This document shows, in pieces, positions 303 to 4,776 of a DNA stretch of 38,826 nt (its first letter is position 1; every line of letters starts with the position of its first letter). The translations under genes were made by a program, and so were the position numbers. The DNA is from Thermococcaceae archaeon (lineage in GTDB: Archaea; Methanobacteriota_B; Thermococci; Thermococcales; Thermococcaceae), in assembly GCA_013330365.1 (NCBI GenBank), contig DUII01000092.1:21225-60050 (forward strand), read 5' to 3'. A model generated the notes under the pieces. The model searched no databases and was not told the origin of the DNA. It saw only the letters and a program-made list of their open reading frames with translations.

Positions 303-416
303 AACAATCACCATAGCGTTTTATAGCTGAAAAACATTTAAAGCTTTTCCTACTTGCGGTCAGTTCTGAACAAAATTATTATTTGATGGCCACAAATCAA
401 CTTAATGGGGAGAGCA

Positions 417-1696
417 ATGAAGGACAATCGGAACTTTTGGCTCTATGCAATGGGTCGGTTTGTTTCCCTTGTGGGCAGCGGGGTTCAGGATGTGGCGTTG
501 CCATTGTTTATCCTCGATTTAACGGGATCGGGCACTATAATGGGCATTTTTATGATAATTTCAATGCTTCCAAGGTTGATTCTTTATCCAATTGCTGGAG
601 TGGTGGGAGATAAAATCAATAGAAAGTGGATAATGGTGTGGATGGACTTTGGTAGGGGAGCGGTTATTCTGTTTCTGGCCCTTCTGGCTTCAAGAAATTT
701 GATAACAATACCTATCCTTTTTGGAACGCAGTTTGTCGTCTCGCTCATGAACGCTTTGTTCGGGCCGGCAACCAGTGCTATGCTGCCGGATATAGTAGAA
801 AAAGAGGAATTAATGAGAGCAAATTCAATTTTGATGAGCCTCAACAGCACAGCTTATATAGTAGGCCCAGCCCTTGGTGGGATAATTTATGGGATGGGAG
901 GAATAATGATAGCGTTTCTTATCAATGGTGTGTCGTTTATAGCTTCAGGTGTTAGTGAGCTTTTTATAAGATTATGAACAAAAAGTAGAGAAGATAAAAA
1001 AACATTGGCGAAGTTTTTGAGGGTTTAAGAGATGGCTTAAACTACATAAGAGTCCAAAGAGGGATATTAATTTTGATGGGCTTTGCTTTGGTAGTTAACT
1101 TTCTTGCAGCTCCAATATTTGCAGTTCTTTGCCCTTATGTGATGAGGATAGTTATTAAATTCACTGCAGAACAGTACGGTCTTTTAGAGACTTCGTTTAT
1201 GGGGGGCATACTTCTCGGAAACATCTTAATCGGTGCACTGTTTGCGAAGAAAAAGGCTGAGAACCTTTTAGTTAAAGGTTTGATATTTGAAACAATTCTA
1301 CTGTTGATTTTTGCCGTTTTAATGTTTCCACAAAGCATTGCCTTCTTTTTGGGTCCCAGCTGGAGGATGTTTGGAGCTATTGCTCTGGTATCTGTTTTGA
1401 TGGGGATTTCAAATGCTTTTGTAACTACTCCATTAAACGTGGAATTCCAGCAGCTTGTTCCCACAGAATACAGGGCAAGAGTGTTTTCAGTTGTGGAAGT
1501 TATGAGTCAAGGAATAGTTCCTATAGGCTACGGTATGGTGGGAATACTCCTTGATAAACTTCCAGCCCATTGGATAGCTTTTAGCCTGACGGTTCTAATA
1601 CTTATCTCAGTCTTGCTGTTTGTAGCGAAATATTCAAGGGTTGTGTTTATGGAATTTGAAAATAAGAAGAAAGAAGTTGAAATGAACCTTCCTTGA
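417..1696 (+). pseudogene. MFS transporter (DHA3/macrolide-efflux-like) split by two +1 frameshifts
   Basis: ORF 405/417-977 (about six TM; motif A-like GVVGDKINRK) and ORF 1073-1696 (about six TM; PTEYRARVFS) join into one MFS protein (...ELFIRYEQKVEKIKNIGEVFEGLRDGLNYIR...) if one T at 972-973 and one A in the A7 run 996-1002 are removed. Could also be sequencing error. Confidence 0.8.
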
Positions 1697-1714
1697 GGTC
1701 TCCCTATCTTGTTC

Positions 1715-1729
1715 CAAAAGATTTAAATA
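1715..1729 (+). promoter_or_regulatory. BRE/TATA promoter upstream of the leuS leader element
   Basis: CAAAAGA followed by TTTAAATA (1722-1729). Standard archaeal spacing puts the TSS at about 1750-1753. Confidence 0.7.
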
Positions 1730-1747
1730 TCCTAATATTAAGATAAA

Positions 1748-1840
1748 AGGCGATGCTTATGAGGGGGGATCGAGTTCTCCACAGCCTGGCACTCCTCTTA
1801 TGCTGAGTCTATTAGCTGTCCCCCTAGCTTCGATTCTGAA
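1748..1840 (+). ncRNA. Structured GC-rich leader or small RNA upstream of leuS (possibly the Thermococcales SscA RNA)
   Basis: GC-rich island in AT-rich intergenic DNA. GGATCGAG (1767-1774) is complementary to TTCGATTC (1829-1836); AGCTG/TAGCT hairpin at 1814-1829; G tract 1762-1769 is complementary to TCCCCCT (1819-1825) or CTCCTC (1792-1797). The SscA identity is from recollection and unverified. Confidence 0.6.
1753..1806 (+). CDS. Putative Leu-rich leader peptide MLMRGDRVLHSLALLLC
   Basis: ATG at 1753 (at the predicted TSS) or 1759 (preceded by AGGCGATG); TGA at 1804-1806. 6 of 17 codons are Leu, including CTC-CTC-TTA at 1792-1800. Lies directly upstream of leuS. Confidence 0.45.
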   Translation: MLMRGDRVLHSLALLLC

Positions 1841-1899
1841 TTATTCTGGTGGCAAACTCTTTTAAAAGACGTTTTTAACAACATCAGGGAGGTTAGGGT

Positions 1900-4776
1900 A
1901 TGGTAGATTTCAAGGCTATTGAAGAAAAATGGCAGCAGAAGTGGCTGGAAGAAAAGGTATTCGAACCTCAGATAGATGAAAAGAAGCCAAAGTTCTACAT
2001 AACGGTTGCATTCCCCTACTTGTCAGGCCACCTTCACGTGGGACATGCAAGGACCTACACTATACCTGACGTTATTGCAAGGTTCAAGAGGATGCAGGGA
2101 TACAATGTCTTGTTCCCAATGGCGTGGCATATAACCGGCTCTCCAATAGTCGGGATAGCGGAAAGAATAAAGCATAGAGATCCCCAGACAATCTACGTTT
2201 ATAGAGATGTCTACAAAGTTCCAGAGGATATTCTATGGACATTTGAAGATCCAGTGAATATAGTTAAGTACTTCATGAAGGTCGCAAAGGAGACTTTTAT
2301 TAGAGCTGGTTTTAGTGTTGACTGGAGCAGAGAATTCCACACGACGTCGCTCTTTCCTCCGTTCAGTAAGTTTATCGAGTGGCAGTTCTTGAGATTAAAA
2401 GAAAAAGGGTTGATCGTTAGGGGAACCCACTACGTCAGATGGGATCCAGTTGTTGGAACCCCCTTGGGAGATCACGACCTGATTGAGGGAGAAGATGTAC
2501 AGATACTGGATTACATTCTGATAAAGTTCGTTCTTGAAGAGGAAGGCGAAGTTTACTATCTACCTGCGGCAACTCTAAGGCCCGAAACCGTTTACGGAGT
2601 AACCAACATGTGGTTAAATCCCGAGGCAACTTACGTGAAAGCCAGAGTTAAGAGCGGAGACAAGGAAGAGAAATGGATAATAAGCAAGGAAGCCGCTTAC
2701 AAGTTGAGCTTCCAAGATAAGGATACTGAAGTTCTGGAAGAGTTCAAGGGAGAGAAGTTAATTGGAAAGTGGGTCAAGAACCCGGTAACTGGAGATGAGG
2801 TAATTATTTTGCCCGCTGAGTTCGTTGATCCAGATAACGCTACCGGAGTAGTCATGAGCGTTCCTGCACATGCACCCTTCGATCATGCAGCCTTAGAGGA
2901 CATAAAGAAGAACACAGAAATTCTGTTGAAGTATGATATTGATCCAAGGATCGTTGAAAACATAAGCTACATCTCCCTGATTGAGTTGGAGGGCTATGGT
3001 GAATTTCCGGCTGTTGAAGAGAGTGAAAAGCTTGGAGTAAAGAGCCAAAAAGATGTGGAAAAACTTGAACAGGCTACAAAAAACATCTACAAAGCTGAAT
3101 ACCACAAGGGCATCTTCAAGATTGAGCCCTACAAAGGAAAACCCGTTAACGAGGTAAAGGAGCTAGTAGCTAAGGAGATGTTCGAAAAAGGAATAGCTGA
3201 CAGGATGTATGAATTCTCGGACAAAAACGTCATCTCAAGGTTTGGAAACAGGGCGGTTATAAAAATAATCCACGATCAATGGTTTATCGACTACGGAAAC
3301 CCAGAATGGAAGGCAAAAGCAAGAGAGGCTTTGGCGCAAATGAAAATCCTGCCGGAGTCAAGAAGGGCACAGTTTGAAGCCATAATAGAGTGGCTCGACA
3401 AGAAAGCCTGCGCGAGAAAAGTCGGCCTTGGAACTCCTTTACCGTGGGATCCGGAGTGGGTGATCGAAAGTCTGAGCGACTCAACAATTTACATGGCTTA
3501 CTACACCATAGGCAGAGCCGTAAATAAGTATGGCATTAAAGGAGAACAGCTAATCCCAGAAGTTTTTGACTACATATTCCTTGAGAACTTCAGTGAGGAA
3601 AAAGAAAAGCAGCTAAGCGAAAAAACAGGCATTCCAAAGGAAGTTATAAGAGAAATGAAGGAAGAATTTGAATACTGGTACCCGCTGGACTGGAGATGCT
3701 CGGCTAAGGACTTAATTCCAAACCACTTAACGTTCTTTATCTTCAACCACGTTGCCATATTCAGAAAAGAGCACTGGCCGAAAGGAATAGCGGTCAACGG
3801 CTTTGGAACCCTTGAAGGACAGAAAATGAGCAAGAGCAAGGGGAACGTGCTCAACTTTATCGATGCCATTGAAGAGAACGGTGCAGATGTGGTTAGACTT
3901 TACATCATGAGTCTAGCAGAGCACGACAGCGACTTTGACTGGAAGAGAAGTGAAGTGGGCAAATTAAGAAAGCAAATAGAGAGATTCTATGAGCTGATAA
4001 CTGAATTTGCCAAATATGAGGACAAAGACGTTGAGCTAATGGACATTGACAAGTGGCTCTTGCACAGAGTTAACAAAGCCATAAAAGGCGCCACTGAGGC
4101 ATTGGAGGAATTTAGAACAAGAACGGCTGTTCAATGGGCTTTCTACAGCATACTGAACGACTTAAGATGGTACATGAGGAGAACAGAAGGAAGGGATGAT
4201 GAAGCGAAGAGGGCTACTTTAAGGAGACTTGCTGATATCTGGGTTCGCTTGATGGCTCCGTTTACACCACACATAGCTGAAGAACTTTGGACAAAGCTCG
4301 GTGGAAAGGGCTTTGTAAGCCTTGCCAAGTGGCCAGAGCCGGTTGAAGAATGGTGGAACGAAACAATAGAACTTGAGGAGGACTACATCAAGGCACTAAT
4401 CGATGATATAAAGGAAATTATCACCGTTGCAAAGCTCGAAAATGCAAAGAGAGCCTACATCTACACAGCTGAAGAGTGGAAGTGGAGAGTAGCAGAAATA
4501 GTTGCGGAGAGGAAGGACTTCAAGGCAGCGATGAGTGAAGTAATGAAAGACCCAGAGATGAGAAAGCGTGGTAAGGAAGTTTCAAAGCTGATTCAAAAGC
4601 TTGTCAAGGAGAGAGCTTTTGAACCCAAGCGCATCGATGAGGAGAAAGCCTTAAGGCAGGCAAAGGACTTCATAGAACGCGAGACTGGGCTGGAAATAAT
4701 CATAAACCCAGAGGAGGACAAGGGTGGAAAGAAGAAGCAGGCAATGCCGATGAAGCCTGCAATATTTGTGGAGTGA
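1900..4776 (+). CDS. leuS: Leucine--tRNA ligase (archaeal type)
   Basis: [13 protein letters not shown] (HIGH motif), KMSKS, CP1 editing motifs ATLRPET and [15 protein letters not shown], archaeal C-terminus [11 protein letters not shown]; GGAGG RBS. Confidence 0.98.

Follow-up and report, generated by a model that had tools for sequence, protein, structure and literature searches.

Organization of the leuS leader

The window, the whole 38,826-nucleotide stretch of Thermococcaceae DNA that was analysed, carries the gene for leucine-tRNA ligase (leuS) behind a leader that contains a promoter and a short upstream open reading frame (uORF). The parts of the leader and the gene are as follows.

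1714–1729, plus strand: BRE (1714–1721, purine-rich) and TATA box (TTTAAATA, 1722–1729) of the leader promoter, assigned from the sequence
1752, plus strand: predicted transcription start, the G one base 5′ of the first ATG, placed by inference from a relative
1753–1806, plus strand: leaderless uORF MLMRGDRVLHSLALLLC* in the 0 frame, 17 codons (11–22 in relatives)
1759–1761, plus strand: second ATG of the uORF
1765–1770, plus strand: Shine-Dalgarno (SD)-like hexamer GGGGAT inside the uORF, 3 nt 5′ of the predicted P-site codon
1774–1779, plus strand: predicted +1 shift site, with GTT in the P site and the sensing codon CTC (Leu, codon 9, 1777–1779) in the A site
1778–1906, plus strand: open +1 frame of 42 codons without Met, ending at a TAG (1904–1906) within leuS codons 2–3
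1820–1827, plus strand: C-run and YTAG/CTAK motif 3′ of the 0-frame stop, able to pair with the G-run of the uORF
1857–1863, plus strand: pyrimidine/U tract CTCTTTT, which may act as a signal for transcript termination or cleavage
1887–1894, plus strand: leuS ribosome-binding site, assigned from the sequence
1900–4776, plus strand: leuS, leucine-tRNA ligase, 958 aa (TIGR00395 leuS_arch, 1184 bits)

These assignments agree with a sequence-only reading of the same DNA, which had located the BRE and TATA box here, had described the uORF with its six Leu codons, four of them among the last six, and had named leuS as the next gene, 93 nt 3′ of the uORF stop. The chance of at least six Leu in 15 codons is about 0.006 at the local base composition, a post hoc figure. 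The TAG that ends the +1 frame falls four bases into leuS. Upstream of the leader, an MFS transporter gene (window 405–1696) is split by a stop at 975–977, with its second half in another frame; a pseudogene and an assembly error are both possible readings.

Conservation across the Thermococcales

The leuS region of the window matched 93 of the 99 genomes of the order, and the upstream region was fetched for all 93; nine Thermococcales loci (L031–L039) are duplicates and were left out of the counts. The genomes are related, and leader counts therefore overstate independence. The start, frame and stop of the uORF are conserved in 91 of the 93 leaders, the exceptions being G091, where the 5′ end is replaced by other sequence, and G002, which belongs to another family. 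All 91 share one layout: a TATA box, about 29 nt, ATG-NNN-ATG-AGG-RGG-GAK, a uORF of 11–22 codons, and a stop 56–108 nt before leuS. TTAAA lies 28–31 nt 5′ of the first ATG in 88 of them.

The alignment of upstream regions that the sequence-only reading had proposed supports the start, frame and stop but not the Leu codons, which vary everywhere except at codon 9. Codon 9 is Leu in 91/91 leaders and is the one invariant Leu; its neighbour, codon 8, is split between Leu (61) and Val (30). The Leu-rich tail, which had been put forward as the sensor, is a trait of the window's genus, and in the largest genus the last six codons are devoid of Leu in 41 of 57 leaders, which speaks against that role. 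The 0-frame stop is TGA in 85 leaders, TAA in 5 and TAG in one, and this interchange suggests that it is read as a stop and hence that the uORF is translated. Beyond it, a YTAG/CTAK-type motif with a C-run is found in 87/91 leaders, a CTCTT-type tract in 87/91 and U4 in 80/91. The second TATA-like sequence (1860–1867), once considered as a possible promoter of leuS itself, reads CTCTTTTG in most of the largest genus among the leaders listed, and no second leuS start was seen in the RNA reads of one relative (G026). In G091 (L017), the replacement sequence brings ATGs in the +1 frame as well as GTG and TTG in the 0 frame, and leuS expression there may be constitutive or rewired.

A predicted shift site behind an internal SD

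Codon 9 belongs to a cassette with a common order in leuS, ileS, trpS and valS leaders: an SD-like hexamer, three bases, a U-rich codon and a codon for the cognate amino acid. In the 91 leuS leaders the predicted P-site codon is CTT (61) or GTT (30), and the A-site codon is CTC in 90 and CTT in one. The hexamer fits the published ribosome-binding-site consensus GGDGRD (PMC5316973, PMC4247193) in 85 of these leaders, and the remaining six read AGGGAK. A GGDGRD-type hexamer stands 3 nt 5′ of the P codon in 85/91 leuS, 64/65 ileS and all trpS leaders; the valS spacer is 4 nt. In prfB, the gene for release factor RF2, the SD spacing is 3 nt. Ordinary starts often have this spacing as well (100 versus 141 with 4 nt). 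The hexamer presumably pairs with 16S rRNA; no 16S rRNA tail was found in this assembly.

The P-site tRNA would re-pair well in the +1 frame at CTT-C and TTT-T, the latter perfectly at Trp sites, partly at GTT-C (30/91 leuS leaders, the window included) and at TTT-A (ileS), and not at ATC-G (valS). The layout resembles the bacterial RF2 +1 frameshift site, with a cognate sense codon and not UGA in the A site.

Cassettes with swapped cognate codons

In the window genome, ileS is preceded by the same motif with ATC replacing CTC, and an unbiased scan of this genome yielded related uORFs before trpS and valS. With gene names taken from NCBIfam, the ileS cassette is present in 65 of the 66 loci examined (96 genomes with a match), the one miss being cut by a contig end, the trpS cassette M-x-G-x-x-F-W in 51/51, and the valS cassette in 50/54, one of the four without it being cut by a contig end. 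The matching position holds the cognate amino acid throughout: Leu in 91/91 leuS, Ile in 65/65 ileS, Trp in 51/51 trpS and Val in 44/44 short valS leaders. Among the ileS leaders, 18/65 have ATA in place of the first ATG, and the second, which the motif search required, is invariant. TGA, TAA and TAG interchange as stop codons in all four synthetase leaders. Following the stop, a pyrimidine tract with a TTAGY/CTAKY motif occurs in 87/91 leuS, 59/65 ileS, 43/51 trpS and 39/44 valS leaders, counts that come without a background rate; the motif region is a possible protein-binding or cleavage site. The tract and motif are also seen in trpB2 and asnS leaders. In addition, valS has its own primary promoter 29–31 nt upstream (supplements of PMC4247193 and PMC5316973).

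No cassette was found before the ser, pro, thr, gly, his, tyr, met, cys, arg, phe, asp, ala and lys synthetase genes in up to five genomes each, a survey in which several G000 loci were incomplete or masked. The trp operon leaders (15 loci) are short and have no uORF cassette. Directly 5′ of the TATA box, the trp operon promoters (L484–L498) carry a conserved C(T)GTCCAAA motif, likely a transcription-factor site.

Several other leaders of amino acid genes have features of their own. The asnS leaders are long, with a uORF ending in L-W-x-N-stop in L450 (G096), L451 (G026) and L452 (G004), not seen in G009; by eye, the shifted frames appear closed in G026, and this uORF may encode a leader peptide of another kind that senses Asn. 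The first gene of the ilv/leu operon, which we take to be ilvB, has Ile/Leu/Val-rich leader peptides in six of seven operons (L534–L538, L540; none in G071), without a consistent +1 frame, and these are candidates for a second, bacterial-style attenuator. In G001 and G002, the ileS leaders (L520, L521) share a hairpin-like AGAGG/AGTTGC...CAGGTGGC segment in place of the uORF cassette. The ilvD gene was seen in just 8 of the 99 genomes of the order, and most carriers of Leu, Ile and Val cassettes are therefore probably unable to synthesize them.

The +1 frame is open up to the start of the synthetase gene

A frame was scored as open if its first stop lay at most 20 nt before the gene start, with expectations taken from dinucleotide shuffles; six valS leaders that contain a gene were scored apart from the 44 short ones. 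The +1 frame is open in 91/91 leuS (25.5 expected), 65/65 ileS (24.6), 51/51 trpS (19.5) and 44/44 short valS leaders (7.9), which amounts to 251/251 with the four genes pooled. The −1 frame is open in 43/91 leuS leaders and in 10 ileS, 0 trpS and 1 valS leaders. Among representatives less than 65% identical, the +1 frame is open in 18/18 leuS, 9/9 ileS, 14/14 trpS and 13/13 valS leaders and the −1 frame in 7, 0, 0 and 1, respectively, and the joint shuffle null for these representatives is about 1e-33, a figure overstated by the relatedness of the genomes. At loosely defined control sites genome-wide, aminoacyl-tRNA synthetase sites included, the +1 frame is open in 30/100 and the −1 frame in 26/100.

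From the Leu codon to the 0-frame stop, 72 distinct leuS leaders contain no +1 stop versus 11.4 expected, and 20 stops in the −1 frame versus 24.7 expected. In ileS leaders both the +1 and the −1 frame have fewer stops than expected over the corresponding interval (2 versus 11.5 for −1), and this test therefore does not discriminate for ileS. Furthermore, the +1 frames are kept open through many changes in leader length.

Stacked Trp cassettes and whole genes in the +1 frame

The leaders of trpB2 (TIGR01415) carry two or three Trp cassettes in series, and in the window genome the leader of a sodium-dependent transporter also carries serial Trp cassettes. Across the 39 leaders scored, the spacing between Trp cassettes is 1 mod 3 in 60/65 cases. 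Three of the other five are 2 mod 3, the spacing expected if the middle site is skipped, as is demonstrated for G016, and two are 0 mod 3 (G013 and G040, true misses). Four further genomes have spacings of 58, 58, 73, 64 and 28. The last frame of the cascade stops on an ATGA or GTGA overlap with the start codon in 33/39 leaders. In G069 the third Trp codon is lost and two shifts would suffice; no Trp cassette was found before trpB2 in G011. A sodium-dependent transporter lies behind two Trp cassettes in G000 (C96, L459) and behind one in G008 (L546), and this position predicts a tryptophan transporter.

In seven genomes in all, a whole gene lies in the +1 frame of a uORF. Six of them have an MFS transporter gene of about 400 codons as the +1 frame of the valS uORF, ending 7–17 nt before valS. 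In G091 and G097 this gene has no ATG, GTG or TTG in its first 60 codons, and the other four have just an unconserved GTG or TTG within the conserved N-terminal segment, inside which several database entries of this family begin. In the seventh, G009, it is trpB2 whose coding sequence forms the +1 frame of the uORF. Its match to the family model begins at residue 8, about 95 codons 3′ of the site are free of start codons, and the SD hexamer holds its sole in-frame start, a GTG. Where valS leaders lack the MFS gene, as in L359, the +1 frame has a 3′ part that resembles, by eye, the MFS C terminus and holds the internal TATA of valS, which suggests that the MFS gene was deleted in frame.

Leader RNA and leader structure

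Raw reads from one short-insert library (run X24, unspecified growth conditions) of one relative, G026, place the 5′ end of 133 RNA molecules at the G before the first ATG of the leuS leader, and that of 88 at the equivalent G of ileS. In the 20 kb examined around ileS, the only larger 5′ peak belongs to an unrelated small RNA. An abundant RNA of about 65 nt lies between two genes of G026 (L542:9183–9250) and is probably a guide RNA. Read depth is about 325 on the leuS leader versus 1–5 on leuS, which reflects a discrete leader RNA and is not a termination rate. Its best-supported 3′ ends lie at +82 to +90, just past the C-run/YTAG-type motif.

Published 5′ UTRs of leuS are 128 and 126 nt long, those of ileS 103 and 118 nt and those of trpS 94 and 95 nt (supplements of PMC4247193 and PMC5316973). 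These lengths equal the leader-length classes, 125–127 nt for leuS, with one base added for leuS and ileS and no base added for trpS, and the uORFs are therefore leaderless.

The window leader folds no better than shuffles (z = −0.29) and contains no terminator hairpin that we could find; RNAalifold gave no fold common to all genera, and a stable structured RNA was rejected on these grounds. Sequestration of the leuS SD is no stronger than in shuffles (0.62 versus 0.60), with no excess in any of the four genes, and SD occlusion was dropped as the output. The leader has no tRNA match and no Rfam match at gathering thresholds or at E ≤ 1, the T-box Stem I/antiterminator model included, and a T-box riboswitch was set aside, as was a C/D box or H/ACA guide RNA, the CTGA being the uORF stop and CTAA in relatives. 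A K-turn reading of ATGA...CTGA was discarded since CTGA behaves as a stop codon.

Proposed mechanism and alternatives

We consider it likely that the leuS leader is a hungry-codon +1 frameshift sensor of Leu-tRNA charging, which probably switches leuS on. In this model the uORF would be translated leaderlessly. With Leu-tRNA plentiful, the ribosome would read CTC and stop at 1804, leaving about 90 nt untranslated, and the untranslated leader transcript would then be cut or terminated. With Leu-tRNA scarce, the A site would stay empty, the internal SD would hold the ribosome, and the P-site tRNA would re-pair one base on; the shifted ribosome would traverse the leader and shield the RNA, terminate on the leuS start and re-initiate. 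As the output we favour anti-termination combined with re-initiation, and archaeal termination at U-tracts and by FttA/aCPSF1 is described in PMC8116511. The promoter spacing, the uORF, the cognate codon and the open +1 frame with its stop beside the start codon are seen in the leaders themselves, and the 5′ end and the short leader RNA in one relative; slippage itself is inferred. Against the model stand the imperfect re-pairing of GTT-C and TTT-A and its failure at ATC-G, the 4-nt SD spacer of valS, the −1 frame open in nearly half of the leuS leaders and depleted of stops in ileS, the ordinary 3-nt SD spacing, the GTG of trpS leaders and G009, the two 0-mod-3 spacings in the Trp cascades, the separate promoter of valS and the four valS loci that have no cassette.

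The sequence-only reading had proposed that a leaderless uORF senses leucyl-tRNA to control leuS. This is probably correct, given the order-wide ORF and its Ile, Trp and Val paralogues; the codons on which it relied were the wrong ones. Stalling on a Leu run, as in the leu, ilv and pheST attenuators, is probably wrong, there being a single codon 9, a +1 layout and no terminator hairpin.

A pause at codon 9 could act without a frame change, by altering the G-run/C-run pairing so as to permit read-through or to free the leuS SD. The RNAalifold consensus of two genera does contain this pairing together with an anti-SD/SD helix, a short leader RNA exists, and mycobacterial leaderless Cys-rich uORFs are described as working in this way (10.1101/834739). 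However, such a pause leaves unexplained the universally open +1 frame, the 1-mod-3 spacing of the cassettes and the +1-frame genes without ATG; furthermore, there is one codon and not a run, no terminator hairpin is present, and SD pairing equals the shuffle control. We regard it as unlikely.

Access to the +1 frame might also come without any slip of the ribosome: RNA polymerase could slip in the G or T runs that flank the site, or translation could initiate directly in the +1 frame, at GTG or a non-standard codon behind the hexamer. Indeed, a +1-frame GTG lies inside the SD hexamer of 51/51 trpS leaders as well as of G009 trpB2, and direct initiation is conceivable for first sites of the Trp type. 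However, no indel reached 5% of the reads in the leuS leader (X24, depth about 325), a +1-frame start 5′ of the site occurs in only 1/91 leuS, 0/65 ileS and 0/44 valS leaders, the second and third Trp sites have no GTG, and neither route needs a cognate codon. Entry of this kind is very unlikely.

We give still less credence to a different shift, be it a −2 slip at the predicted site or a +1 slip on reaching the 0-frame stop, where release factor would be sensed. A −2 shift reaches the same frame, and valS re-pairs poorly in +1; RF2 itself shifts at a stop codon. Yet the TTT-T of the Trp sites re-pairs perfectly in +1, and an SD placed 3 nt before the last sense codon is found in 0/72 leuS, 0/43 ileS, 1/37 trpS and 0/36 valS distinct leaders, which speaks against the stop as the site. 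Moreover, the last sense codon varies freely, and leuS +1 stops are avoided from the cognate codon onward.

Least credible is an RNA-only element, a T-box-like specifier codon or a tRNA mimic binding the synthetase with the ORF incidental: the first 27 nt are conserved as nucleotides, third positions included, and the sensing codons CUC, AUC, GUC and UGG resemble T-box specifiers, but the lack of an Rfam match, the interchange of stop codons in all four genes, the survival of open frames through many length changes and the absence of a fold common to the genera make it highly improbable.

Reach of the cassette and relation to known systems

Among 59 leuS loci scored from archaea outside the Thermococcales, four have a matching cassette and 55, a single Nanohaloarchaea locus included, do not. 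The matches are the three Heimdallarchaeota loci scored (3/3) and one unclassified archaeon, with GTT or TTT before the Leu codon of the uORF and +1 stops at +1, +11, +5 and −16; under a stricter filter no matching cassette was found outside the order. In G002, which belongs to the other family, the trpS cassette is present and that of leuS is missing. The balance leans towards a portable +1 cassette, codon-swappable, stackable and fusible to genes, as an archaeal counterpart of attenuators and T-boxes that reads tRNA charging and reaches at least to Heimdallarchaeota.

If this is true, hungry-codon slippage, usually deemed an error, becomes a programmed sensor, and stacking two or three deep would sharpen the response. 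The model gives a precise, base-level hypothesis, in an order amenable to genetics, for how archaea detect at the level of mRNA that amino acids or tRNA are in short supply. It predicts mis-annotated starts (the MFS transporter and trpB2) and the amino acid specificities of orphan transporters, and it offers a potential compact amino-acid-inducible switch for hyperthermophiles.

We found no description of the cassette in the open-licence literature. One study records long leaders for the leu, val and trp synthetases and gives no mechanism (PMC3849170), and a term search of PMC3124441 returned no mention of synthetases. In 2014, archaeal attenuators were said to have no direct experimental support, and 11 aminoacyl-tRNA genes to have unexplained long 5′ UTRs (PMC4247193); a 2021 review listed a single instance of programmed frameshifting in a cellular archaeal gene, of the −1 type (PMC8211752). 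Closest to the present reading, the authors of a study on Haloferax leuA2 speculated that an out-of-frame ATG together with slippage permits translation only without leucine (PMC8305020). As described there, this concerns one gene in one genus, with neither a cassette nor a shift site defined, unlike the Thermococcales cassette.

The leader belongs neither to the classical attenuators nor to the T-boxes. Like T-box riboswitches, the cassettes assign each gene a single specifier codon, which changes from one synthetase gene to the next. T-boxes have a conserved fold and recognize tRNA with no ribosome involved, whereas the leuS leader, as noted above, has no Rfam match. The leu, ilv and pheST attenuators, the leuS and trpS attenuators of Streptomyces and the actinobacterial LEU element (PMC1262725) similarly place a cognate uORF before a synthetase or biosynthesis gene, but they are described with runs of cognate codons and with alternative hairpins or a pseudoknot, and the leuS leaders have no conserved run of cognate codons, only codon 9 being invariant. 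The mycobacterial polycysteine sORFs (10.1101/834739) are likewise leaderless uORFs that form an amino-acid-sensing regulon; there, stalling on a Cys tract frees an SD, and the abstract does not mention frameshifting.

Closest are two bacterial systems in which the ribosome shifts. The RF2 site comprises an internal SD, the shift site CUU_U and a slow A-site codon (PMC5009743), and the cassettes similarly combine a short 0-frame ORF, an internal SD, a U-rich P codon (CUU in 61/91 leuS leaders) and a slow A-site sensor. In prfB the +1 shift makes good the shortage of the limiting factor, as it would in the cassettes, and the two-frame gene layout of prfB recurs in G009 trpB2 and in the MFS gene linked to valS. 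The cassettes differ from prfB in that the sensor is a swappable sense codon and not UGA, in being stackable, archaeal and leaderless, and in a +1 frame that is usually a throw-away spacer ending at the start of the next gene. In the ketolide-induced ermC leader (PMC5009743), too, shifted ribosomes translate through a spacer and the downstream gene is turned on, but there the trigger is a drug and the output is the unfolding of an SD-hiding structure, for which the leuS leaders have no excess over shuffles. Regulation of the leuS type would work most like RF2 autoregulation combined with the logic of the ermC leader, with a sense codon as the sensor.
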